A program made the translations under genes and the position numbers. Shown piece after piece: positions 21,495 to 58,508 of a DNA stretch of 64,000 bases (its first letter is position 1; the number at the start of each line of letters is the position of its first letter). The stretch comes from Malacoraja senta. Taxonomy: Eukaryota. Where the stretch lies: assembly GCA_038087875.1 (NCBI GenBank), contig CM075977.1, positions 121,892,001 through 121,956,000 of the forward strand, in the 5' to 3' direction. The notes under the pieces were generated by a model. It worked only from the letters and a program-made list of their open reading frames with translations. It was not told the DNA's origin and searched no databases.

Positions 21495-21624
21495 ACCTTT
21501 CATTTGGACAGATACATGGATAGGGAAGGTTTAGAGGGGTGTGGGCCAAATGGTGGCAGGTGGGAATGGGGTAGATGGGGCATCTTCATTGGTATGGGCA
21601 GGTTGGGCTGAAGGGCCTGTGCCC
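21495..21624 (+). mobile_element. CR1 3' tail split by the ERV; continues at 35459-35475
   Basis: ...gggctgaagggcctgtgccc | ERV | gccctattactctat reconstitutes a CR1-type tail. Confidence 0.7.
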
Positions 21625-21840
21625 TGTAGCCGGAGACTTGATGGCAAATAGCCCAACACGTTTTGGGAATATGCTACTAGCTAGGACCAGGAGAACAAAG
21701 AAGCACTGTGAAAATGGTCACGTGATGGACATCAGGTGAGAGCAGAGCTGAAGGTAACTTCATGGCTATGTAGTGTGGCCTTGAGAAGATAAGGTGTCTG
21801 GGAACAGCCATTTTGCAAAGGAGAGTTGGATGAGATAGCC
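21625..21840 (+). repeat. 5' LTR remnant
   Basis: About 70-bp block 21766-21835 (tgtggccttgagaagataaggtgtctggga...ccattttgcaa) matches 34325-34395; the rest of the LTR and the PBS are missing. Confidence 0.65.
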
Positions 21841-22760
21841 CGGAGATATGGAGAGGGATTTGGAGAACTAGAGTGGGACTTGAGACCTCATGCCCCCTGT
21901 GATGAAGGTCAGGGCATGCCACCATCCATTGAACCCGTCCTTATGAATCCATTTACCACACATCGGACAGGCAGGTCACAGGAAAATAACATACAGCACA
22001 TCACATGACAGTAGCGCAACTGTCTTAAATAGCAAAAAGCATCCCAGTCTTCAAACTTTCCGCTGACCCTCATGAGCTATTTGATCGTGTCCGCTAGCAG
22101 AAAGATATGCATGGGCTAGATGATGAGGAAGAGAAAACGCTCCTGCTTGCATGTCTCAGCCCTATCATACATTCAGCATTACCTGAGCCTCAGAACACTG
22201 GGGGAGGCAGCCTGCAGGCCATGAAAGAAGCCATACTGACGGTGGCGGGAAGTCATAGAACAGACCCAGAGGAGGTTTTAAATAAATGTAGACAGAAAGA
22301 AGGGGAACGCCCTACAGCTTATGCCAGATGATTATGGGTACATTTTAATGAAGTATATGGACCAGGTCTGGACTGGCAACACTTACAGGCACCTAATGAT
22401 AATAGAAGGACCAGGACCCTGGTAACACACTCCAGACACGATAGTAGACAAGCATGCAAAAGCTTTGAGCCGTGACCCAACACATACAGAACCATGGGTA
22501 TTGAGACATTTGGTACGGGCTTGGGAAAAGGAGGTTAGAGAAGCTGCAAAGTTTAAAATAAACAAGGAGGGAAGAATGAATCCTATTAAAAGCCTGAACA
22601 GAGGTCCAGTATGGGGAAATGAGGGAAGGGATAGAGAAAGAGATGGCAATGGTAACTGGGGTTCACCATCTCCGTACAGATCCCTGGCAGGGAGAGAACA
22701 AATTCATGATCAGAGAGCTGATTGGAATGAGGGTGTGCGAGAGCAGGGGCAAGGCGCAGA
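21841..22760 (+). pseudogene. gag: ERV gag remnant
   Basis: Interrupted frames DMHGLDDEEEKTLLLACL...LNKCRQKEGERPTAYAR*LW (major-homology-region-like QxxxExxxxY), in the expected position. Confidence 0.65.
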
Positions 22761-22948
22761 ACAACAAAACATCACTGGAAGGACCCAGATTGTTGGAGTT
22801 TTGTTTGAGGTGGGGTTGTTTCACTTTTAATACGTTGAACAATTACTTGATCAATAAATTCCAGCATTCCTCAGCTTTGCAATGTTAAAGTCTAATGCTT
22901 CCATTAACGTTTGTATGATTTTGTTCTTGTCTTGTTAACAGCTTAACC

Positions 22949-23838
22949 CAGGGGCCTCCAAACCTTTCAGCATGAGGGCCACATCATATATTTAGCACAT
23001 TTTTGCGGGCTATAGGAAGAAATAAAGACGTCAGTTTTATAAATTTAATGAAAGAGATAGAGATATAGAGAGATATAGAGAGATATAGAGAGATAGAGAG
23101 ATAGAGATAGATAGANNNNNNNNNNNNNNNNNNNNNNNNNNNNNNNNNNNNNNNNNNNNNNNNNNNNNNNNNNNNNNNNNNNNNNNNNNNNNNNNNNNNN
23201 NNNNNNNNNNNNNNNNNNNNNNNNNNNNNNNNNNNNNNNNNNNNNNNNNNNNNNNNNNNNNNNNNNNNNNNNNNNNNNNNNNNNNNNNNNNNNNNNNNNN
23301 NNNNNNNNNNNNNNNNNNNNNNNNNNNNNNNNNNNNNNNNNNNNNNNNNNNNNNNNNNNNNNNNNNNNNNNNNNNNNNNNAGGGGGAGAGAGAGGCAGAG
23401 AGGGGAGAGAGAGGGGGGAAAGAGAGAGGGGGAGAGAGGGCAGAGAGAGAGAGGGCAGAGAGAGAGAGGGCATAGAGAGAGAGGGCAGAGAGAGAGAGGG
23501 CAGAGAGAGGGAGGTCAGAGAGGAACGATTGCACGTTGTAACGCGCCACCGACCCATTCTGACCGCCGCCGCTGAACACCGCCCCACTCCATTCTGGCTG
23601 CCACGGCCGAACAACCCCACCCCCACCACCAATGCACCCTTCTTCACGGCGGCCCTGTGATGACGCGGCTCTGACAATTCGAGGGACCTACCCGGTAACA
23701 ACACTAAGAGCCGCCGTGTTCCCCAACTCGAATCGACTCGATGCCTAACTGACACATGCTCTGTCCTGCGCTGAGCTTGCTGCGGGCCAGATAAAGTCTC
23801 GTGGCGGACCGGATGTGGCCATAGTTTGGAGACCCCTG
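22949..23838. mobile_element. hAT (Charlie-like) MITE containing AG-rich repeats and a gap
   Basis: TIRs caggggcctccaaac / gtttggagacccctg; 8-bp TSD gcttaacc / gcttaatc. Confidence 0.85.
23116..23380. other. Assembly gap
   Basis: N run. Confidence 1.
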
Positions 23839-24507
23839 GCTTAATCCCTTAAGGAAAGTCATTAACTGGTTTAAAGTATGAATTATATGTAAGTTTTATA
23901 TTGTTGCAAGAGGTGTGGCACGAGGTAATTTTGATTTGCATGACGGGAAGCGAAAATGCATGAAGTAGGCGAGTGCAAAAAGCTGCTGCGTGTTTGTTAC
24001 ATCTGTCTTGGGAGAATGTTGAATGAATCCTATGTTCTAGATGGAATAGGATGTGACTGAAAGATTCTGTTTCTGTGTTTTAAAAAGTAATGTTGCTTTA
24101 AGAACTTGTGCGAGTTGTGTGGGAGCCCCATCCATCTTTTCCTTTCCTTTATTCTTTGGATTATGTGTTGGAAGTTTTCACTGTGGAAATTAACGTTATT
24201 CTAATTTTCTAGTTATTTTGAAGATTCTAAAATGAGAAGTGCAAACTTTTGTCCTTTTTATTTCATATAGTTTCTTTCTTTTGAAATTAATTTGAGAGAA
24301 ACCAGGATTCCACAATGGCCATGTGGAATCCAGGTTAAGGTGTTGGAAGGTGAGTGTCTCTATTCCGGATATGACATGCCGTCATTTCAGAAAGAAATTG
24401 GCATTTGGGGATATTGGTTATTAGGGTATATTTAAATTGGGAATTTGAAATAGGTATTTTGAGAAATTGGAACATTAGGGAGCAATCTTAAAAGTTGTTT
24501 TTACTAA

Positions 24508-25474
24508 CATGTTGATTAGTTGGACTGGATGTTACAATCCCTAAGGTTCTTCGCCACACTGACACCCGGTATTCTTGGGGATGACCACTAGGTGATTTTG
24601 CTACCAATCAGACACATCTTCAGTTGTGTACCTCAACGTCACTGGGTGTTTCGGCCTTTTATCACAAGACACCCTCAGTCGAGGCAGGCCCACCGCAGGG
24701 TGATCAGCCCTGGGTGTGAGTCTTATGGTTAGCCTCTAGATGGTCACGTGGCAGCCCAGACAGCATCATTTCTCTTCAGCCACAGCCAGTGACTGCTCCA
24801 TTCTGATTTTTTCTTTCCATCTTCCTCTCTACCGCTGACTGTGGCTGGTTGGGCTCTGGACTCATGTCCGTTGGTGGGACAGTACTTGGTTGAGCTTTGC
24901 CTGGGGTGCTGATACTCTGTGGACTGTGGTGGTTAACCTGCCACTGGGCTTCATTCGACTGATTTGGCCTACCTCTTAGAAAGTAATGGTCAATGCGAGG
25001 CCCCACACCAAGCTCTCCCAGGCACTTTTTCCTGCCCTGGTGGATCTTGAGACCCTTCTCTGATGTTATCTTTTCCCAGCCACAGATGCAGCTTCGTAGC
25101 TTATGTCCTGCTGGTGCTGCCGCTCTGTCAATTGCTGCGCTAGTTGTCTTATTCATTGTCGATTCCTTCCGTAGCAATATAAAGGTGGATCCAAAATGCT
25201 GATTAGCGATGGATCCTGCTGGCATGAGGAGCTAGCCCATGCCAGCCCCTGTGGGGTCTATTCCCTCCGGTCAGCAGTCTCTCCAGGCCATCACTAGGTC
25301 TTTCCCTGGTTGTCAGCTGCCCTTTCGCAGCGGTCACTGGTTTGATCCAGAAGTTCATATTGATTAGTTGGACTGGATGTTACAATCCATAAGGTTCTTC
25401 ACCACACTGACACCCGGTATTCTTGGGGATGACCACTAGGTGATTTTGCTATCAATCAGATAGCATCTTCAGTT
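24508..25474 (-). mobile_element. Internally deleted HERO-type (R2 group) non-LTR retrotransposon with terminal direct repeats
   Basis: ORF 24776-25225 carries an N-terminal zinc finger CICGW...GLKIHQGRKKC joined directly to the 3' region; 24508-24625 is repeated at 25356-25474. Confidence 0.7.
24610..24684 (-). ncRNA. Predicted rearranged (non-circularly permuted) hammerhead ribozyme
   Basis: RNA GGGUGUC-UUGUG...GGCC-GAAA-CACCC...CACAA-CUGAAGA-UGUGUCU: full core, 6-bp stem III, 5-bp stem I, bulged stem II. Confidence 0.7.
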
Positions 25475-25584
25475 TATTTTCCAGAAGATTTTGCGTAAGA
25501 TTTTGACATGCTGATATTGAGTTTGGCGTTTCTTTCGAAAATAGTTTTGACATAATCATATTTTCTTTGTAGATGTTCTAAAAT

Positions 25585-25631
25585 CTTTTCACTCTACCTC
25601 GGTATATGCGACAATAAACTAAACTAAACTA
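25585..25631 (+). mobile_element. Isolated Rex/Babar-type LINE 3' tail
   Basis: cttttcactctacctcggtatatgcgacaataaa(ctaaa)n; related tail on the minus strand at 37741-37790. Confidence 0.7.
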
Positions 25632-26970
25632 ATTACACTGGAGAACAACAATATTGTCAAGTGTGGACAGTAAATGATCCCAAGGGTCCATTTGTGCCAA
25701 AACAAAAATGGGAGGAGGCTGTAGGGCAAAGCATTATGTGATACAGGGAATAGTGAGGAACGCAGACAAACTGCTAATGAAAATGAAACCACAGATATTA
25801 CTTCAAACATTGCTGTTGGTGGATTTGCTAGATTAGTCGATGGAATCAGGAATACAGGATGTGGCATGTATGGAGAAAACGACCAAGGCATACTGCTAGC
25901 AGAAATAGCTTTAAAACTAACAGCTAGAATGAGTGCTCAGAATGCTGAGCTAGCAGCAGTAGCCTATGTGGTCAGCCACCCTGACATGTTTCTCCAACAG
26001 TCAACATATACTCAGACAACATGTACATGTATGTATGTAACAGCCTAACTAATTTTTTGCCACTATGGGAAGCGAGGGGTTTTGTGTCAGTGAACGGTAA
26101 ACCTTTACCATCTGCGTCTCTTTCTTCAAATACATAATTCAGGAAGCTTATGAGGAGAATATGGTATAATTAAAATAAAAGTACACCATAAATTTTCCCC
26201 TGCAAAGAACATACGAGCAGATGAATTGGCAAAGTTAGGTGCCCAAGAATTAGAGGCATAGCAACCACCAATAGGTGAACAGTTGGATGTAGTCACAATC
26301 AACAAAGTAAGATTGAAGATCTGATACAGGCTCAAACCACAAACAGCGAACTGAAACAAATCCGAGATGACATATGACAACTAAGATACAAGTGGAGGAC
26401 AGACTTGTCATTAAAAATGGACGGTCTGTGGTACCCACCCAAGATTGTAATTAAATAATTATTTGATAATGCCAGAATGTTCAGAGACACCAAGGTGGTT
26501 GAAGCAAGCACTGGGTGAATTAAAATCTTGTGCTGGTGGCCAAGTATGGATAACGACATATAAGACTATGTGGATAACTGTTTGGTGTGTGTCCAGAATA
26601 ACCCAGTCATCATGCTAATAAAGGAGAACTTGGGCATACCAGACCAGTGAACGGACCCTGCACAAACTTACAGATAGATTACATTGGCCCTCTGCCACCA
26701 TGCAAGGGGGATACAGTATATCTTGGTAATCATTGACACATTGGTTAAAGCTTTTCCTATCAGGAATGACACAGCTGATATATAAGTATGGCAGGTATTT
26801 ACCAAATGCGGATTTCCATGCTGCATTGAATCAGACCAAGGCACCCATTTTACTGCCCAGGTCATGCAGAATGTAATGTTCTTATTGGAAACTCTGCATA
26901 ACATATTAGTTGCAGTTGAGTGTTATAATTAAAAAAACAAATAGAACCCTGCAACCATGATTCAGAAAAC
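25632..26970 (+). pseudogene. pol: ERV pol remnant: RNase H and integrase (protease/RT absent)
   Basis: SAQNAELAAV, IYSD..Y, LPLWEARGF, NIRADELAK (RNase H); WWPSM...CLVC, NLQIDYIGPLPP, IESDQGTHFT (integrase). Confidence 0.9.
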
Positions 26971-27403
26971 TGAACGATTCCATGTGAAAGGGATGGTATC
27001 ATGTCAATCAATTAAAATCATTCAGTCAACAGAATGACCACCATTGCCACATTCTGGTGGATGTATGTGAGACATTGACTCCAACTCCTGTCTATCGCAA
27101 GCAATAAAATAAAGCAAAGAAGTATTAAAATAGTAAGAGGGTATAATAAATATCAAACTTCAAACTGGTAAGTTCTCGTTTAATCTTACTATTTTACTTC
27201 GGAGTCACGTGAGTGACTACGTGAAGATTTTAAAGCTTTGTGATTTCATGCCGCAGATACAAATCCCGGCTTCTCACTGCATTGATTGACTCGGAACGAG
27301 AAATAATCAATAATGCATTAATAATGACATTTGCATGACAAAATGCAGTAATTCATTTATTTTAATAATAGAATTAACAGTATCCCCTTTAAACCAGCGG
27401 AAA

Positions 27404-28384
27404 TTATGCAGAACTTAAAATAGTGTCTGCAAACAGCCCCATATTGGCAATAGGCCGATGGTAAAACTGTTGAAACACCAACTCATTGGACCACCCGGCG
27501 GCTGCGAGAATATGGTCGATGGGGACGTCCTTCGCCCTGGCCGCCGACGTTACTGCTGCCCTAGTCGAATGGGATGTAAAAACATCAGTGTTAATACCTG
27601 CAGCAATCAAGACTTGTTTTAACCATCTTGAAATAGTCTGTATTGAGACTCTCTTGTGTGTTTTTTTATGTGTGATAAACAATCCAGTTTCCATATTTCA
27701 TAAGACCCTTGTAGCCTCAATGTATTGTAACAAATATGTCTTAATACATAGACATGGATCCGTTGGATATGCTGATAAAACAATTCTGAATCCTGTCATA
27801 CCTGGCCTACTTTGTTTGAGTAGGTCATAAATGTAAAACATAACATTATCTTGAGCTACTTCCATCCTGTCTATTTGTAACTTTTGTAATGTCTGCACTT
27901 GCTGTGCTGTTACAAATGCCATAAGCATGACCACTTTCATACTGAGTTTGGCCAAAGTCAAAGACATACCAGGAGACCATTCACGAAGTAGCTTAAGAAC
28001 CACACTTACATCCCAGATTGCCATTTAACTAGGCTTAGGAGGTCTGGAATTAAAAATTCTTTTCATCAATCTGGATACGAGCGGATGAGACCCAATAGGA
28101 TTTCCTTCCGACTCCATGAATAAATATGAGGACAATGCACTTCTGGCTGAATTAATTGCACTATAACTCAACCCCTCATCGTAATAAAGTGTTGACAAAA
28201 ACTCTAAAACATTTGAGGTATCTGCCGTACAATATTCAATATTCTTTTGTACACAGAACTTTTCCCATTTCTTTATATAGGAAATGTACTGCTTTTGAGT
28301 GCACTTCCTCCAGGCTGCCGTAAGCATGTCCACAGTACGCCCAGACAGTCCTCGCCCGAGAAAAGGCCTTCTTAAAACCTGCAA
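27404..28384 (-). pseudogene. DIRS tyrosine recombinase, split into three ORF pieces
   Basis: YSAINSARSALS (N-terminal domain), TAQ[Q]VQTL, HSTRAA and AAGWSN..VFQQFYH motifs. Confidence 0.9.
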
Positions 28385-28815
28385 ATTAACAAATCCATAC
28401 GATCATATAATGGATGTTGTTCTCCTGTTACTCGATGCAGCAGTAAATCCCTTCTTTTCGGGACTTTCATCAAAGGCAGTGTTGTCAATTCTAATATCAA
28501 AGGAAACCATGGCTGTGTAGGCCAATCCGGTACCACCAGTACCCTGGAGGCGGTATCTTGCCTGATTTTAAGCAAACACCGACTTATGAGGCAGAATGGT
28601 GGAAATGCATACAAAAACATACCACCCCAATGTAGCGAGAAAGCATCAATCGCTACTGCACCTGGATCTGGTTCCCATGACACATATCTCGATAGCTGAT
28701 GATTTAATCTAGATGCGAACAAGTCGATATCTGGCATTCCAAATCTGACTACTATGTCATTGAATACCTCTCGATTCAACATCCATTCTTTGTTATCATG
28801 GAATTTCCTTGACAT
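28372..28815 (-). pseudogene. DIRS DNA adenine methyltransferase-like domain
   Basis: IDLFAS, DAF...W, YAFPPF and VPDWPTQPWFP motifs, typical of the DIRS1 pol C-terminus. Confidence 0.85.
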
Positions 28816-30310
28816 GGTGTCTGCTATAATATTTAATCTACCTGGTAGATAAATAGCTGAAATCCAAATATTCCTGTCAATACATCAAGACCAGATTTGA
28901 TTAGCCAACTTATCACAAGACACCGACTTGTTTCCACCCATGTGATTAATATATGCCACAGCTGTTGCATTATCAATTTGAAGCTGAACATGCAGGTTAG
29001 TCATGTTAGAGCAATAAGCTTGGAGTCCATAGAACCCTCCTAAAAGCTCTAAATAGTTGATTCCCCATGTCTGCAGAAACAATGCCTCTTCCATATTCCA
29101 TCTGCCTTTGCAGCTGGATGACAAATCAGTTGCACCCCATCCTAGTGCTCTGACATCAGTTTGTAATACCATGGGAGGCTGTTCAATCAGTATTTTACTG
29201 AAACTACTTGAGACATGTAGAATCCACCTCTGCAAATCAGAAACAGCATTTGTTGTTAACTGCATGGCCCTATCAAAATGGCCACCATGCATCCTCAGTG
29301 CCTGTTCTTTAGCTCTCTGTAGCTGTTGGTAATGTAATGGCCCATATTGTACTGCTGGAAAAGCTGCTACTAATTTCCCTAGCACACTGGCCACATGTCT
29401 AATTGAAGGTTTTCGCTCATTTAACAGCTTAATGCAATCATCAATCAACTCCACCCTTTTTTCACTGGGCAAAGTTACTACCATGTGAACTGAATCAATT
29501 GTGAAACCCAAATAATCAATTGATGTAAGTGGTGTTAACCTTGATACCTTTGGATGTATTAGAAAACCCAAACTTTCAAAAGTGGATTTAACAACTGACA
29601 TAGATAACTCAGCTAACTCTTTTGTTCATCCTATAATTAGGACATCATCCAGCTAAGCCATTACCACATGCCCCTGGCCTCTCAGCAGCCCCAGAATTGG
29701 TTTTAACAATTTAGTGAATATTCTAGGAGCTGATGTTAACCCATTAGGCAGAGCTTTGAACTGCCATAACTGGTTCATCCAGGTAAACTTTAAATATGTT
29801 CTATCTTCCAAATGAACAGACACTGAATAATATGCATCTTTTAAATCTATAGTTGCCATATAACATGCTTTTGAAATAAATTGTTTGGCAATCACAAAAG
29901 TCTCCATTTTAAAGTGTCTAAATTGAACAAAAGGATTAAGACTTGTCAAGTCCAAAATAATCCTACATGCTCCATCCTTCTTAGGTCGGGGAAATATATT
30001 AGACACAAATTGGTGGGTTTGATAAACCGACTTTTCAATAACTCCTTTATTACATAAGTTTTCAAGTTCAGCTTGAACCTCCATCACTTCTTTTTGTGAA
30101 AACTGCAGTGTTCTGCTAGGAACTTGCTGGATGGGCAAATCATAATTTGGATCGAACTCAATTTGAAATCCTTGCATAATACTCAGAATAACAAAGTCTG
30201 AATTAATCTGCTTCCAACTTTTATAGAAGAGATGTAATCTACCCCCAACCTTTGGCTGTACTGCCGTTAATATGTTCCCATGTGAACCAGGTTCACCTAC
30301 CTCCTTAGTC
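28816..30310 (-). pseudogene. DIRS reverse transcriptase and RNase H
   Basis: VGGRL, RIILDL, FKMET, IDLKDAY, LPNGLTSAPRIFTK, *LDD; LQTD..LGWG, INYLEL, DNATAVAYINHMGG motifs. Confidence 0.92.
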
Positions 30311-31484
30311 ACTTGAGTGACCTGTGGTCCCTGGCTTCTGGCGGGAAGACCCACGCTTGTTCGTGTTCCAGCTGGAGGCCACCAACTACGTCCCTGCGAT
30401 GATGATCGACTTGTTCCTGGTGTAGGCCCAGGATCAGTATGATGTCTGAAAGGATACCTCCTCTTCACAGACTTGCCAACCATCGGTGTTTTGATCAACC
30501 CGGCTGTTTTTGCCTCATCATCCAACTCCTTCACGCGTCTCGCGAGGTCTTCTCCGAAGAGTAAGTTGGGTAGCTGCACATTACTGGGCTTGCAGAGTAC
30601 TGCGAATTTGGGATTGATGGTGGGCCGAATGGCACACTTCCTCAAACAATTGATCTCGAAGTGGGCGCTACATAGCAACCCTAGTGCCTCTTGATGCAAA
30701 TCCGTCATCTGCTGGCCTCTATCCATTGTTCTGGCAAATACAGTTATTCCAGAACCCATCAGCTTCAATATTCTCTGCAGCTTTATTTCTTGGGCTCTCA
30801 TACTCATGCTCATCTGACCCCATATCACTTTATTTACTGCTGGTGCTTTCAATAATACGCAATTCCTCGGGGTCTCGTGCTTTTTGGCAGTTTCATCCAT
30901 CGCAAGCTGTCCAGCTGATGGGATACCAAGTAGTTGATCGTGGAGGCCAACTCTTCTCCCAGTGGCTCTCCTGACCCTGACGGGGCAGCGAATCGTATTG
31001 ACAGAGGTGGAACATCTGGCAGCTGCCGTTCTTCACTTGAATCGGCCTCACCGTCAGAGTCGGGGTCAGAACTCTGCTGACCCTGTGCACGCGCCTCATC
31101 AATGAGGGTGCTCTCAAACAGCCCTTTGCTAGGTGCTGCTGACCTGGCTTCTGGAGCCTGGCTTTGGCTACACTCTTCCCTGAGTGTGCTTTGCTTGAGT
31201 AACCTGTGTAACAGGCTCTCCATTTGAGAAATCCGCTCAAAAGCGGTACCCAGCCCTGGAGTCGAATCCTCCTGATTGGACTCCTCCTCCATGGGCCTGA
31301 TGAACTTGTACTTAGCCTTGCGCCCCACTGGCGCTGACTGTGTTCTTTTAAGACCCAAATCCACAGTCGCTACGCTCCCAGCCGGCGACTGTACAGGGGT
31401 CTGAGGCAGCTCTTCGCCGACCGCAATCTCACGACTTTCAACCGGCTTTGCCGCTCGCCTCTTCCCCTTGCCCGTTTTTTCCAT
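30311..31484 (-). pseudogene. DIRS ORF1 (gag-like), frameshifted near 30900
   Basis: Kozak-like gcgccATGg at 31484; C-terminal PRNC..LKAPAVNKVIW...LLFGEDL block; position upstream of RT. Confidence 0.75.
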
Positions 31485-32012
31485 GGCGCCTGTGGAAAAA
31501 ATCCCCACAGACCCACAGCAAACGGACCCGGAAACTTTTGAAAAAGTTTTTACTTACCTTGTAGCTCAAACTACATTTGCACTACATTACGTTCACGCCA
31601 ATGCTTCTGACATAATGACGCGCAGGCGCCCTGACGGGTCTTCTTCACGTAGTCACTCACGTGACTCCGAAGTAAAATACTGGCTTATTAGACTGTACCA
31701 AGAACTGTAAATAAGAGCAGATATTACTTGTGTTTTACAGATAATTGATATTCTGCAAAGTGAAGTAATTGATTACGGTGACAACGGAGGGGATCCCGAT
31801 CAGTGTTGGAACAGCTCAAGATGTCGGGCTGATTTATAACCTTACTGAGGCACTGTGTCTCAGAGATAGGACAATTCTAGCATATTGTGGTGAAATACAC
31901 TAGAACAAGTGGTTAAGGTTCTGGAAAGCCATGTAAAAACAATAAATCAGATCATAAAGGAAAAGACCAAAGATAAGTCGAGCTCCCACAAAACAAGACC
32001 CGGTGTAGTATC

Positions 32013-32236
32013 GTGTTTAAGAAGGAACTGCAGATGCTGGAAAATCGAAGGTAGACAAAAATGCTGGAGAAACGCAGCGAGTGATGCAGCATCTATGGAG
32101 CGAAGGAAATAGGCAACGTTTCGGGTCGAAACCCTTCTTCAGACGGAAGAAGGGTTTCGACCCGATACGTTGCCTATTTCCTTCATCCATAGATGCTGCA
32201 TCACCCGCTGAGTTTCTCCAGCATTTTTGTCTACCT
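32013..32236. mobile_element. Palindromic PLE-derived insertion
   Basis: Near-perfect arms of about 90 bp centred near 32143; 10-bp TSD gtgtagtatc (32003-32012, 32237-32246). Confidence 0.9.
32112..32144 (-). ncRNA. Minimal type I hammerhead ribozyme (PLE type), intact core
   Basis: CUGAAGA-A-GGGU-UUCG-ACCC-GAAA-CGUU. Confidence 0.75.
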
Positions 32237-33216
32237 GTGTAGTATCTATGGGAATTGGATGCGAGAACAACTGAGAGAAAATCTTGGGTGGGTCAGCCAA
32301 GGAAAAGCTTTCCCTCTTGTATTAGTGATGAACAATTGGGGAATTTAACCAACAGAGAAATACACCCAAGGTTACGAAGGAGTCAATTCCATCGATTAAA
32401 TAAAGTCTGGTTCAAGGAAGGTTGTGGGGAGCTACTAGTAAAGCTTTGGGAATGATACTGGGACTTTTAATAATCCCACAGGATAAACGTGGACTGGAAA
32501 TTTACCAAGTAGAAAATATAAGCTATATTAGAGAAGGGATATGGCTAGGACATGAAAACGTTCTGCCTTATTCCATAGAAAAGACAAATGATTGGTAGAT
32601 ACACCCCTGACTAAATGGCAACATACTGATGGGATTGTTGTCTGTCCATACCCTATATACACTAATGAACAAGCTCAGTGGGGATTTGAGGCAAAAAGAG
32701 ATTTACAATTACATTGTACAATGGAAGCTAGGGTACTCAAGGTCGAAATCACCAAGGTTGCGTGCATAGGAAAATGGAAATACTGTATTCCAACTTCATT
32801 ACAGGAATATCAATATGATGTTCAGGCATGTCCTATTAACAATACAACCTAATGTATTCATCCGCAAATACCCGCCAATATTGGTAAAATCGAGTGGATT
32901 GATGTACATAAACGTAATGAAATCACGATGGAAGTTACTGAGAGAATAAAGGAAGATTCAAGCAAATATTTCCAAAAGGATATTACTAAAGTTGGGCTCT
33001 TGCCTGACAATTTACAATGGATTAAAAAACAGCTAATTAATGGCCCCAGTACATTCATTAATGTCATCCAGCACACTGGAGAGATTAAGATGAATATTAA
33101 AGAAATTAAGGAAACCAGCTGGTGGGATGATATTTGGAACTGGGATACAAATGTACAAATTCACCCGTGGGTAAGGATTGCCTCCCACATTGCAATCGTT
33201 GTGATGGTTTTAACAT

Positions 33217-34168
33217 TGAAACATAGAAAATAGGTGCAGGAGTAGGCCATTCGGCCCTCCAAGCCTGCACCGCCATTCAATATGATCATGGCTGATCATC
33301 CAACTCAGTATCCTGTACCTGCCTTCTCTCCATACCCCCTGATCCCTTTAGCCACAAGGACCACATCTAACTCCCTCTTAAATATAGCCAATGAACTGGC
33401 CTCAACTACCTTCTCTGGCAGAGAATTCCAGAGATTCACCACTGTGTGAAAAATGTTTTTCTCATCTTGGTCCTAAAAGATTTCCCCCTTATCCTTAAAC
33501 TGTGACCCCTTGTTCTGGACTTCCCCAACATCGGGAACAATCTTCTTGCATCTAGCCTGTCCAACCCCTTTAAGAATTTTGTAAGTTTCTATAAGATCCC
33601 CCCTCAATCTTCTAAATTCTAGCGAGTACAAGCCGAGTCTATCCAGTCTTGCTTCATATGAAAGTCCTGACATCCCAGGAATCAGTCTGGTGAACCTTCT
33701 CTATACTCCCTCTATGGCAAGAATGTCTTTCCTCAGAATTGGAGACCAAAACTGTACGTAATACTCCAGGTGTGGTCTCACCAAGACCTTGTACAACTGC
33801 AGTAGAACCTCCCTGCTCCTATACTCAAATCCTTTTGCTATGAATGCTAACATACCATTCGCTTTCTTCACTGCACCTGCATGCCTACTTTCAATGACTG
33901 GTGTACCATGACACCCAGGTCTCGTTGCATCTCCCCTTTTCCTAATCGGCCACCATTCAGATAATAGTCTACTTTCCTGTTTTTGCCATCAAAGTGGATA
34001 ACCTCACATTTATCCACATTATACTGCATCTGCCATGCATTTGCCCACTCACACAGTCTATCCAAGTCACCTTGCAGCCTCCTAGCATCCTCCTCACAGC
34101 TAACACTGCCCCCCAGCTTAGTGTCATCCGCAAACTTGGAGATGTTGCATTCAATTCCCTCGTCCAAA
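33217..34168 (-). mobile_element. 5'-truncated CR1 LINE
   Basis: KFADDTKLGG and LYSLEFRRLRGDLIE motifs, plus 3' UTR. Confidence 0.93.
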
Positions 34169-34244
34169 TCAACAAAGAACAGATACATTATAGGGATAAC
34201 AAGCAGAGAGACACATGTATTGATAAGGTAAAAGATGAGGGAAA

Positions 34245-35458
34245 TTATGCTTTAAGAGTAGCGTAATAGTTTTAAATACTATTTGCTTGACTATCTTTTG
34301 TAGAAAATTGTAACATGGCAAAAACTATGCAGTGTGGCCTTGAGAAGATAAGGTGTCTGGGAATGGCCATTTTGCAACGGAACTGTATGATGAGAATGAA
34401 AATACGAAACAGGCAACATAATTAAGAACTCTCTAGCCCAGGGGTCGGCAACCTTGTTCTGCATAGGGGCCAGGACGCATATGTCTGTGAGCGGATGGCG
34501 GTCCACATCTCTCACGTGTACACATGGATCCTGCCCCGGTTGGCAGGCATCAAATCATGTGTTCACATAGAACCCACCCCTTCGAGGACGCCACCCTAGT
34601 TACGGGCACTCACGAACATGGCGTACCTACGGACCATTGCCTTGGCTCTGTCCTGAAGGTGGTGGCTCAAATACTCATACTCACTCGTTCCCGGCCTATT
34701 CACAACCCTGATCCCGACAGTGACCAGGATGCGGTACGGCCAGAGCTTGGCGCTCGGCGCTGCTCGGCGGCGCCGCCATTGTGGCCGCCAGCGTAGGCCT
34801 CCTTGCTTCCTTGCATCACCGTGCCTGAGTGCCGTGGCCTCGGGCCCGGGTGGTACCGGAGATGACGGAAGCCTGCGGGCCGGATAATTACGGGAAAAAA
34901 TATATGCCTGCGGGCCAGATGATTTCGGGTTACGGGCCGCATTTGGCCCAGGGGCCGTATTTTGCTAACCCCTGCTCTAGCCTGATAAGGAACGAAGATG
35001 CGTTTTTTGATTCAGCACTTGGATGAGTGATAACTTGAAATGATTGACCAGAATTGTGAGAGCCTTGGGTTAGAACAAAGGCTTCTTTTAGGAGTTTGAA
35101 GGGAAAATCGGTATAATTGAAGGGCAGTCTGAGATTTTGTGGGCGACAATGAGGGAACAACCGTGGCAAGAAGATGGGACGAGTTCGAAGCTCAGTGAAG
35201 ACTACCCCCTACCAACGGAGTGAATCAGGTCAATTCATTCATATGGGTAATATCTGACTCCAAGTCATGTGTTTTGTGGTTTAGTTTAAGAAGTGATAAG
35301 TTTAAATAGTAAAGTAAATGATGTTATTAGAAGTCAATAGTTTGCATGCATGTTTAAGTTACTCAAGTGTTAATAAAGATTAAGTTGGACTAAACCTTGG
35401 TTTAGAGTCTTTTGTTCGACACTTCAGTTGATACCCTTTGGAGGTAATAGGGTTAACA
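34245..35458 (+). repeat. ERV 3' LTR, interrupted by a MITE; start approximate
   Basis: Follows purine tract aaaagatgagggaaa (about 34230-34244); TATA-like at about 35112, AATAAA at 35372, ends gttaaCA plus TSD. Confidence 0.75.
34439..34974. mobile_element. hAT (Charlie-like) MITE
   Basis: TIRs caggggtcggcaa / ttgctaacccctg; perfect 8-bp TSD ctctagcc. Confidence 0.9.
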
Positions 35459-36201
35459 GCCCTATTACTCTATAATATTTTACCTCCAACTGAGAAAGCG
35501 AGTTTTTAAATCTCCGTTGCAGATATTATTGGCAATTCCATTGGTGTTGATATTAGTGATTTCCATACCTGAACTCATGGATAGTGCTGCCATCATACGC
35601 ACTGCACTTTCATCACATGTTGTACTTTTGCTCACTCTCCCAGGTAGATAAATATTAGCCACTGTTTTATTTTGCTATCTAACGTAAACTGAGGTAGTAA
35701 TCTCCACCTGTGAGGATTTGCTGATTGGGGGCCCTCTGGTTCATCTCAAGCCCACCTGACTAAAGTTAACTCAACTGAAGCTGACCTGAGCGTTTGAATC
35801 TTGTCATTGGCCAACATAATGATTCCTAGAAAAGTACAATCTTTCAATTGAAAGGATTTGATTCCAAATGCAGGCTCATAACCCGTTAATAGTGGGGGCT
35901 ATCCTTCTCTATCTCAACCCAACAATTTATTTCCCTCTTAATCTGGAGGACCCTTCCTGCATTTGTGCTCAAGACCTTGTTGCTCTTTCTTGGTGGAAAA
36001 TGGTGGAGTTACTTTCACTTTTGTTTTTGGCCTACCACAGACTGACTTTTCACTGGATTGATTCATATATTGATTGCTGCTTTCTCAATAAAGAAGGTGG
36101 TTTTATACATACAATCCTTTTTTTAAGGTGTGCAATAAATACCATTAAGCAATGTCTATATATGAGGGGAGATCGATGAATGTTTCTTTTCCTTATTAGT
36201 C

Positions 36202-42600: not shown

Positions 42601-42904
42601 ATATCTCCTGTAAGTTTTAATTTGATTTTTAATTCTTACTAGAATAAGTGGGATCCGTTGGGTCCCATGTTCACACGGGAGGGCTGGTCTCCCAACGCAA
42701 TATTCCACCCCTCCACCAATTCCGATATTGGTGGCCAGTGGGGGGGGGGGGTTCTGGAGCGCTAGTATGGGTGTTGTGGGCTGAAGGGACTGGTCTCCAG
42801 AGGGCTAGTATGGACATTGTGGGCCAAATTGATTCTTGTGGTGGCAGCTCAGTCATTCAAGCCTGATGTACTGGAAGCTCACTCACTCACGGCAGGTGGG
42901 CTGG

Positions 42905-43545
42905 CCATTTCCATTTCAAGCAGGGTGCAAGGCCATCAAATTCAAATGCAGTTTCCTACCATTTCAAGCAGGGTGCAAGGCCACAAAACTCAAGTGCAGT
43001 TTCTTACCACTTCAAGCAAGGTGCAAGGCCACCAAATTCAAGTGCAGTTTCATACTACTTCAAGCAGGGTGCAAGGCCACCAAATTCAGGTGCAGTTTCC
43101 TACCACTTCAAACAGGGTGCAAGGCCACCAAATTCAAGTGCAATTTCATGCCACCAAGCAGGGTGCAAGGCCACCAAATTAAAGTGCAGTTTCATGCCAG
43201 TTCAAGCAGGGTGCAAGATAACCAAATTCAGGTGCAGTTTCGTACCATTTCAAGCAGGGTGCATGGCCACCAAATTCAAGTGCAGTTTCCAACCACTTCA
43301 AGCAGGGTGCAAGGCCACCAAATTCAAATGCCATTTCATACCACTTCAAGCAGGGTGCAAGGCCACCAAATTCATGTGCAAATTCATACCATTTCAAGCA
43401 GGGTGCATGGCCACTGAATTCAAATGCTGTTTCATACCACTTCATGCCGGGTGCAAGGCCACCAAATTCAAATGCAGTTTCATATCATTTCATGCAGGGT
43501 GCAAGGCCACCACATTCAAATGCAGTTTTATACCATTTCAAGCTG
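42905..43545. repeat. 48-bp minisatellite, about 13 copies
   Basis: Unit caagcagggtgcaaggccaccaaattcaagtgcagtttcataccactt. Confidence 0.95.
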
Positions 43546-43967
43546 GGTGAAACCACCATAAAACCACACAAAACACAACAAACACCACATAAACACCACA
43601 CTCACAGTTCAGTAGACATTCAGTGTATTCAGTTGATTCACAGCTCAGACAGAGTCGTGACCTCTCCCTCCCCCATCTTGCAGAGACTGAGCCACAGCCA
43701 CACTTCTGGGTTTTATAATCCCTCCCCCCTTCCACCAGAAGGGGCGTGGCCTTCATGGCATGATTGACAGGAGAGAGATTCTCAACATTTTTAAAACACT
43801 AATAACACTTTGATTTTTCATTGATAGGAAGAATCCTCTGCACCTGATGAGCGGAGGGGGACTGAGTAAGATGGCCAAAAATCACAGCCGTAAGTGGTAG
43901 CGTTTTATCTAAAATCAATGTACAGTGCAAACAGGAAGTTGTCAAGTTTAGACTTTTATTCCTGTAC

Positions 43968-44548
43968 TTTATTTCAAACCAACCACCACCAACAACCATT
44001 TGCTGTGCTTTATTTCAAACCAACCACCACCAACAACCGTTTGCTGTGCTTTATTTCAAACCAACCACCACCAACAACCGTTTGCTGTGCTTTATTTCAA
44101 ACCAACCACCACCAAGAACCATTTGCTGTGCTTTATTTCAAACCAACCACCACCACTAACAACCATTTGCTGTGCTTTATTTCAAAACAAATCACCACCA
44201 ACAACCATTTGCTGTGCTTCATTTCAAACCAACCACCACCACTAACAACCATTTGCTGTGCTTTATTTCAAACCAACCACCAACCACCATTTGCTGTGCT
44301 TTATTTCAAACCAACCACCATTTGCTGTGCTTTATTTCAAACCAACCACCATTTTCTGTGCTTTATTTCAAACCAACCACCACCAACAACCATTTGCTGT
44401 GATTTATTTAAAACCAACCACCACCAACAACCATTTGCTGTGCTTTTTTCAAACCAACCACAATTTGCTGTGCTTTATTTCAAACCAACCGCCACCAACC
44501 ATTTGTTGTGCTTTATTTCAAACTAACCACCATTTTCATTTTCAAACC
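43968..44548. repeat. About 41-bp variable minisatellite, about 15 copies
   Basis: Unit ttatttcaaaccaaccaccaccaacaaccatttgctgtgct with trinucleotide length variation. Confidence 0.95.
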
Positions 44549-57623: not shown

Positions 57624-57761
57624 TAAAACTATCTTAAGGCTCCAACAGTTGCTAAAGGTTGAGAACAGGAAGCAACATAATGAACAGGGATTAGTGTTTC
57701 CTTTATACTCGTGTTTCATTCATTTGTATCAATTTATTCATGTGCAAATACAAGGCAGCTA

Positions 57762-58508
57762 CTGGGGCTGGGGCTCTGGATCTGGGGCTGGGGCTCTGGA
57801 TCTGGGGCTGGGGCTCTGGATCTGGGGCTCTGAATCTGGGGATGTGGATCTGGGGCTGGGGCTAGGGCTCTGGATCTGGATCTGGGGCTGGGGCTCTGGA
57901 TCTTGGGCTGGGGCTCTGGATCTTGGGCCGGGGCTCTGGATCTGGATCTGGGAATGTGGATCTGGGGCTTGGGCTCTGGATCTGGGGCTGGATCTGGGGC
58001 TAGGGCTCTGGATCTAGGGCTCGGGATCTGGGGCTGGAGATCTGGATCTGGGGCTGGGGATCTGGGGCCAGGGCTGGGGATCTGGATCTGGATCTGGGGC
58101 TGGGGGTCTGAGGATCTGGATCTGGGGATCTGGGGGCTGGGGGCTGGGGATGTGGATCTGGGGCCGGGAATGTGGATCTGGGGCTGGGGATCTGGGGCTG
58201 GGGCTAGGGATCTGGGGATGTGGATCTGGGGCTGGGGGTCTGGGGATCTGGGACTGGGGGTCTGGGGATCTGGGGATGTGGATCTGGGGCTGGGGGTCTG
58301 GGGCTGGGGATCTGGGGCTGGGATCTGGATCTGGGGATCTGGGTCTGGGGCTGGGGATGAGGATCTGGGGCTGGGGGTCTGGGGCTGGGGGTCTGAGAGC
58401 TAGGAGCTGGGGGCTGGGGGCTAGGAGCTGGGAGTTGGGAGCTGGGGGCTGAGGGCTGGAGGCTGGGGGCTGGGAGCTGGGAGCTGGGAGCTGGGAGCTG
58501 GGAGCTGG
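57762..58508 (+). repeat. G-rich hexamer/heptamer satellite (CTGGGG / CTGGAT / CTGGGAG)
   Basis: Direct inspection; the array runs into the gap. Confidence 0.95.

Follow-up and report, generated by a model that had tools for sequence, protein, structure and literature searches.

A broken endogenous retrovirus with a predicted F-type envelope in a probable cartilaginous fish, and its possible place in the snakehead retrovirus clade

To which branch of the retroviruses should a provirus be assigned when its genes are broken and its reverse transcriptase (RT) has gone? The question is raised by an element on the forward strand of contig CM075977.1 (GenBank assembly GCA_038087875.1), within the 64,000-nucleotide stretch from 121,892,001 to 121,956,000 (the whole of this stretch is called the window here, and positions are counted from its first letter). 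A sequence-only reading had proposed a foamy- or lokiretrovirus-like endogenous retrovirus (ERV) of a cartilaginous fish, perhaps close to the root of the retroviruses.

The locus is a dead, heavily broken ERV copy, encoding no full protein and having no capacity to replicate; every viral gene that remains carries stops and frame breaks. The best explanation of its affinities, which we regard as an evenly balanced judgement, is an ERV of the snakehead retrovirus (SnRV) clade, resembling lineage I of the elephant-shark ERVs (CmiERV lineage I) and equipped with an envelope (Env) of the F type. An early view that the element was clearly SnRV-like was lowered after the identity scores and the integrase and RNase H trees had been taken into account.

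Much of what had been read from the letters beforehand was borne out. The element begins with TG and ends with CA, with GCCC on both sides (for four bases, a chance match would be expected in about 0.4% of cases); a retroviral RNase H lies upstream of an integrase; the gene in the env position proves to be a real env; and no RT of the element itself was found, since in the interval reference Pol proteins match nothing but a nested DIRS element's RT, and the RT signals there (Pfam, reference Pol) are confined to that minus-strand element and a piece of CR1.

RNase H and integrase

Pfam recognises the integrase zinc finger (Integrase_H2C2, E 2.6e-8) and, weakly, the RNase H (RNase_H, E 0.046), and the motifs quoted in the sequence-only reading (SAQNAEL, IYSD, WEARGF, NLQIDYIGPLPP and IESDQGTHFT) are all found, across shifting frames. 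The references with which they were compared were fetched by motif, and comprise SnRV, foamy viruses, gamma-type viruses with Xen-1, and walleye dermal sarcoma virus (WDSV), together with fish ERVs, the last including lokiretroviral elements from metagenomes. Their labels are our own, given on the basis of length and of agreement with rows in the available part of the supplement of PMC7947760; the locus called SnRV (L001), for instance, owes its name to its length of 10,688 nt and to its motifs. It may be remarked in passing that metagenome contigs hold fish ERVs, among them a near-complete lokiretrovirus (L054), an epsilon-like element (L074), a non-class-I fish ERV with a gamma-type env (L049) and the integrase fragment closest to that of the window (L127). 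Searches of viral contigs with the integrase piece and with its motif came back empty.

Over the 82 columns of the integrase core, the number identical to the window is 41 for L127, 34 for L049, 31-33 for three lokiretroviral rows, just 28 for SnRV (with which no grouping is supported) and 22-26 for eight foamy rows, while a count by eye on translated DNA gives about 37 of 82 for CmiERV lineage I. The lowest identities (22-25%) belong to three Gypsy-like rows, which, few as they are, stand apart at 80/91. For the RNase H, the highest local scores are those of WDSV (the best match, 42/129), a fish epsilon-like ERV, SnRV, a class I ERV and L049, the lokiretroviral entry coming twelfth of 14. The block YGIIKIKVH resembles, by eye, those of SnRV and the epsilon rows, and the corresponding block of all 24 lokiretroviral rows is absent; in the RNase H tree the window falls on the side that is neither lokiretroviral nor foamy (86/94), beside SnRV, on long branches and with no alternative rejected. 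It is because the highest integrase identities are those of L127 and CmiERV lineage I, and because of the RNase H scores and block style, that a place in the SnRV clade is preferred. In a tree of the reference RTs, L049 lies among the canonical retroviruses, outside class I and outside the foamy viruses.

By motif, the element appears closest to CmiERV lineage I, which has a chondrichthyan host and, compared by eye, a similar integrase core and similar RNase H and capsid motifs; that lineage retains its RT and paired long terminal repeats (LTRs), whereas the present copy does not. In the available part of Han 2015 (PMC4422223), CmiERV lineage I clusters with SnRV. The clade of SnRV, named Huo, whose RNase H block is of the same style as that of the window and whose Env, sharing its layout, gives a weak alignment, is described as widespread in the accessible passages of PMC6001957, PMC4977317, PMC12193657 and PMC4299795, which also bear on duplication lengths by class.

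Envelope gene and its relatives

HMMER gave 17 matches to the env (best E 4e-43); 16 of the 17 were looked up, and the nine that have a name are all sharks, being predicted proteins of Heptranchias, Heterodontus, Chiloscyllium, Rhincodon and Scyliorhinus. Because all nine are sharks, the host is likely to be a chondrichthyan. These relatives, annotated as uncharacterised or hypothetical, belong to the same family and are 23-38% identical to the window over the scored stretch (contigs without a name reach 62%), and some of them, unlike the broken env of the window, are long intact frames. Alignment of the C-terminal half runs through the cysteine-rich region, the heptad and the transmembrane helix. 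The sequences P0013 and P0014 were judged to be false matches driven by repeats and were left out of the alignments. Pfam and PDB sequence searches with the env pieces gave nothing useful, and word-index searches for homologues with the env and integrase pieces gave no match.

An Env of the gamma type, such as is known in sharks, was considered and ruled out, the immunosuppressive domain and the CX6CC motif being missing both from the env pieces of the window and from the full-length relatives. The architecture is instead predicted to be that of the F proteins of paramyxo- and pneumoviruses, and this prediction comes from models of relatives. For the full-length relative P0009 (pLDDT 45), all PDB rows shown are paramyxo- or pneumovirus F proteins apart from one foamy Env (best E 3e-7; 191 matches under 0.001; TM-scores under 0.25). 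Against a viral fold library the same model returned a list of mixed content with many F proteins, in which the Envs of WDSV and WEHV-1 also occur, and a VIA search placed a foamy Env and the F protein of NDV on top, with Z of 7.4 and 7.2, values that lie within background. The model of P0019 (pLDDT 55.5) has F proteins in its first ten rows, none under E 0.001. At the level of sequence, the env profile reaches the F0 of hPIV3 only at E 0.19, and PF00523 does not match this family, whereas it does match the lokiretrovirus L054.

Among the fetched references, it is the lokiretroviral Env to which this predicted F-type Env comes nearest. A search of 1,922 frames from the fetched loci with the env profile gives E values of 1.2e-9 for the lokiretroviral Env, 0.003 for foamy Env, 0.16 for WDSV and 0.93 for SnRV, and hhalign probabilities follow with 92.5%, 5.8%, 18% and 14.8% respectively; identity to the lokiretroviral Env is about 19%. 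The Envs of SnRV and WDSV (aligned loci L001:6131-9532 and L157:5962-9648) align to the family at E 0.0018 and 0.0013 with probabilities of only 15-18%, that of WDSV weakly and over 300 columns. An F-type Env is compatible with membership of the SnRV clade because foamy viruses, too, have an F-type Env and because the SnRV and WDSV Envs do align, if weakly; fish retroviruses in general may possess F-type cores. The F-related architecture of foamy Env is described in the available parts of PMC11468914 and PMC12583693.

Two side observations concern the relatives themselves. P0009, P0020 and P0022 represent an intact env relative of 739-754 amino acids with a furin-type site and a transmembrane helix; its identity is 86% for the pair Chiloscyllium punctatum and Scyliorhinus torazame and 88% for Scyliorhinus and Heterodontus francisci, so that it spans three shark orders at 86-88% identity. 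In galeomorph sharks it has likely been domesticated as an F-type env. In addition, P0007, a predicted isoform of Heterodontus fbxo15, carries at its end a fragment from this env family, which may reflect either exonisation or an error in the gene model.

Weighing the placements

A number of points tell against assignment to the SnRV clade. The RT on which these clades are based is missing from the copy, and L127, itself without RT, has no fixed clade of its own. CmiERV lineage I has, by eye, a gamma-type env with an immunosuppressive domain, in contrast to the F-type env of the window, and is absent from all trees made here. Both integrase trees place the window as sister to the lokiretroviruses, with 77/74 for 28 rows and 78/80 after nine rows were dropped (neither starred). 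The combined tree ties this same position with the best; there, grouping with SnRV has p 0.35 and with foamy viruses (as sister) p 0.44, while grouping with L049 is marginally rejected (p 0.044). For the RNase H, a position with lokiretroviruses plus foamy viruses is not rejected either (p 0.45-0.50). The env profile favours the lokiretroviral Env far over that of SnRV, and both fold models are of low confidence and are of relatives, P0019 having no match below the threshold mentioned above.

It is a credible possibility, if one well short of even, that the element represents a chondrichthyan sister lineage of the lokiretroviruses, outside their 24 described families, sharing with them an F-type Env and an integrase that goes back to a common ancestor, and differing in RNase H. 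Apart from the two integrase trees, the tie in the combined tree and the Env comparison, this is favoured by integrase BLAST, in which the 79 and 78 bits of lokiretroviral rows belong to the highest scores, and by the sampling of the lokiretrovirus screen, which, in the part of PMC7947760 available, covered just three chondrichthyan genomes with no positives and reported an F-like Env for the group. Against it stand the unstarred supports, the closer integrase identity of L127 and (by eye) CmiERV lineage I, the distance between the Envs and the absence of lokiretroviral signatures: besides the missing RNase H block, the window integrase has Asp (LVIID) where 22 of 24 lokiretroviral integrases have, by eye, Cys. 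The tether domain, a further lokiretrovirus feature, is, like the RT, absent from this decayed copy. It must also be remembered that the same source reports repeated replacement of integrase and calls integrase trees unreliable. Nesting of the window inside the lokiretroviruses is rejected by the approximately unbiased (AU) test on integrase (p 0.003, three lokiretroviral rows), while the corresponding tests of a sister position to them, of grouping with L127 plus L049 (p 0.12) and of grouping with SnRV (p 0.085) do not reject. Of the lokiretrovirus-like character originally proposed, then, the link through Env and, weakly, through integrase stands, and membership of the described lokiretroviruses does not. 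A linker between RNase H and integrase that had looked lokiretroviral by eye was dropped, its scores being at chance level against all 14 references.

A bolder variant, of much the same likelihood, would see in the element an undescribed chondrichthyan lineage between lokiretroviruses and canonical retroviruses, combining a lokiretrovirus-type F Env, an integrase sister to theirs and a canonical RNase H; on this view the F-type Env would be ancestral to both, and the intact shark env would have been kept across three orders.

The foamy-like character proposed by the sequence-only reading has fared worse, having rested on the motif IDYIGPLP, which is not diagnostic: the longer form IDYIGPLPP is indeed common to window and foamy integrases, but it recurs almost identically in CmiERV lineage I and in a fish ERV. 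A fish foamy-like ERV (CmiFLERV, ERV-Spuma.0-Sca or one of the cartilaginous-fish endogenous foamy viruses) is unlikely to be the source, even though the only PDB matches of the integrase piece are to the integrase of PFV (E 0.33-0.89), foamy Env occurs among the fold matches with an F-related fold, and the duplication is of 4 bp. A foamy-like ERV of a catshark is reported in the available part of PMC10699275. The AU test rejects grouping of the integrase with the eight mammalian foamy rows (p 0.03), in a comparison without shark foamy-like sequences; judged by eye, AliFLERV, AciFLERV and ZFERV-2 have different RNase H rows; and the foamy Env sequence match is weak. Least likely of all is an epsilon-like (class I) ERV with a WDSV-type envelope, to which the RNase H ranking, the weak Env alignment, the appearance of WDSV Env in the viral fold search and the 4-bp duplications typical of class I ERVs (PMC4299795, in part) would point, but WDSV and Xen-1 integrases score well below L049, L127 and the lokiretroviruses, and in none of the trees is a grouping of the window with class I supported.

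With the SnRV clade as the preferred placement, the broader proposal, a retrovirus of cartilaginous fishes that branches deeply, finds support. The outcome named beforehand as speaking against a new lineage, that the element nests in a family described earlier from sharks, is probable by way of CmiERV lineage I, if not demonstrable.

Structure, age and significance of the copy

The remnants follow the order gag, RNase H, integrase, env (Table 1). Of the 13.8 kb of the element, about 4.6 kb are viral by count, and about 9 kb are later insertions or DNA without assignment, comprising two hAT-like miniature inverted-repeat transposable elements (MITEs), the DIRS, a palindromic MITE, the CR1 piece and one stretch without a family label.

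Table 1 Features of the provirus and of the elements nested in it (window positions)
Feature	Positions	Strand	Remarks
Provirus	21625..35458	+	TG at 21625-26, CA at 35457-58
Left target-site duplication GCCC	21621..21624	.	adjoins TG end
5' LTR remnant	21625..21830 (end approximate)	+	starts TG; 57 bp at 93% to 34325-34381
gag remnant, capsid C-terminal part	22035..22790	+	2 stops, one frame break; Atlas gag clusters 0.90-0.94
hAT-like MITE	22949..23838	.	terminal inverted repeats, 7/8 target duplication; contains assembly gap
Stretch without family label	23850..25630	.	105-119 bp direct repeat (24508, 25356) and repeat tail
RNase H remnant	25725..26260	+	four frame pieces
Integrase remnant	26290..27050	+	zinc finger and catalytic core; C-terminal part lost; several stops, frame breaks
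DIRS retrotransposon	27190..31679	-	gag, RT, methylase-like, tyrosine recombinase; perfect 38-bp inverted repeats
env remnant, first heptad region	31880..32010	+	11/21 identical to P0019, E 4e-5
Palindromic high-copy MITE	32011..32239	.	splits env remnant
env remnant, cysteine-rich region to transmembrane helix	32240..33220	+	stops and frame breaks
CR1-like LINE 3' fragment	33223..34171	-	RVT_1; further copies in window
3' LTR	34309..35458	+	start inferred; AATAAA at 35372; ends CA; MITE inside
hAT-like MITE inside 3' LTR	34439..34974	.	exact 8-bp target duplication; run X9 has joint skipping MITE
Right target-site duplication GCCC	35459..35462	.	junction bridged in runs X3, X5, X9

The two LTRs are not an intact pair, since they match over these 57 bp only; the rest of the 5' LTR, the primer site and the leader appear to have been deleted, up into gag. 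Searches of the element for tRNA and Rfam matches gave none, and the primer site was not found. Protease and RT are both lost, the gap falling in the stretch without a family label. For the gag remnant, Pfam and PDB searches gave no support (the PDB matches being nanobodies), and comparison with the fetched reference viruses gave nothing at E < 1 and hence no placement. The hAT label of the two MITEs follows from the 8-bp target duplications usual for hAT elements. The DIRS is nearly complete, with real ends that may reach slightly further; because its depth in the organism designated A is far above that in organisms B, C and E, a recent lineage-specific burst is likely.

Two side observations may be added. 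Within the stretch without a family label, a direct repeat of about 119 bp (95% identity) at 24508-25474 flanks an 850-bp stretch holding a minus-strand frame of 151 codons with a Cys/His motif, for which Pfam gave no match. Elsewhere in the window, tandem arrays with units of 48, 41 and 14/20 bp occupy 42815-44535 and 57723-58439.

Both flanks of the element read as a single high-copy repeat tail interrupted by the insertion. The right junction is bridged by contigs of organisms B, C and E (all three non-self runs), with 12-26 differences over 308-514 bases; for the left junction there is no bridging among the pieces listed. Because the right junction is common to all, the insertion predates the split of B, C and E from A, and the divergence suggests, as a rough estimate, an age of tens of millions of years, using the shark rates assumed in the available parts of PMC10699275 and PMC4422223. 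In each run several distinct contigs cover the same internal positions and LTR parts lie far deeper than the genes (the depth of the 5' LTR remnant exceeds theirs in four of four runs), from which we infer that the family is of low copy number and has left many solo LTRs, depth in itself giving no copy number.

A plausible history would begin, probably some tens of millions of years back, with a virus likely to have reached the germ line of a cartilaginous fish. Its entry would have been through a class I fusogen that was cleaved and had a core of the F type, fusing in the manner of paramyxovirus F, and it would have been reverse transcribed, as membership of the retrovirus family implies. Integration into the repeat tail with a 4-bp duplication is shown by the sequence, and its own DDE integrase, to judge from the role of that enzyme in related families, would have carried it out. 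The family may then have spread to several copies and many solo LTRs; later deletions, nested insertions and the complete loss of coding capacity are again seen in the copy itself.

No published account was found of a cartilaginous-fish element combining a canonical-looking RNase H with a lokiretrovirus-nearest F-type Env, and a literature search largely without subscription papers turned up no ERV from sharks or rays with an F-type Env other than foamy ones. Sharks are not mentioned in the available passages of bioRxiv 2023.10.26.564294 and 2024.03.25.586437. Shark env screens, as far as their available passages go, used gamma-type or syncytin queries (bioRxiv 2021.11.23.469661; 10.64898/2026.05.06.723177), and given such queries they would miss this env family; the second also demanded an immunosuppressive domain, and would for that reason drop the intact shark env.

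The present copy, with its RT gone and its genes broken, is a poor witness, and the family and the conserved intact shark env matter more than the locus. According to the available part of PMC9040795, lokiretroviruses and canonical retroviruses gained Env independently, as only the lokiretroviral Env resembled the F protein of Mononegavirales. The structures of foamy Env already weaken that case, and a chondrichthyan family with a canonical-looking RNase H and a lokiretrovirus-nearest Env offers a test case in an under-sampled class. Were it indeed a lineage between the two groups, the F-type Env would be ancestral to both, against independent origins.

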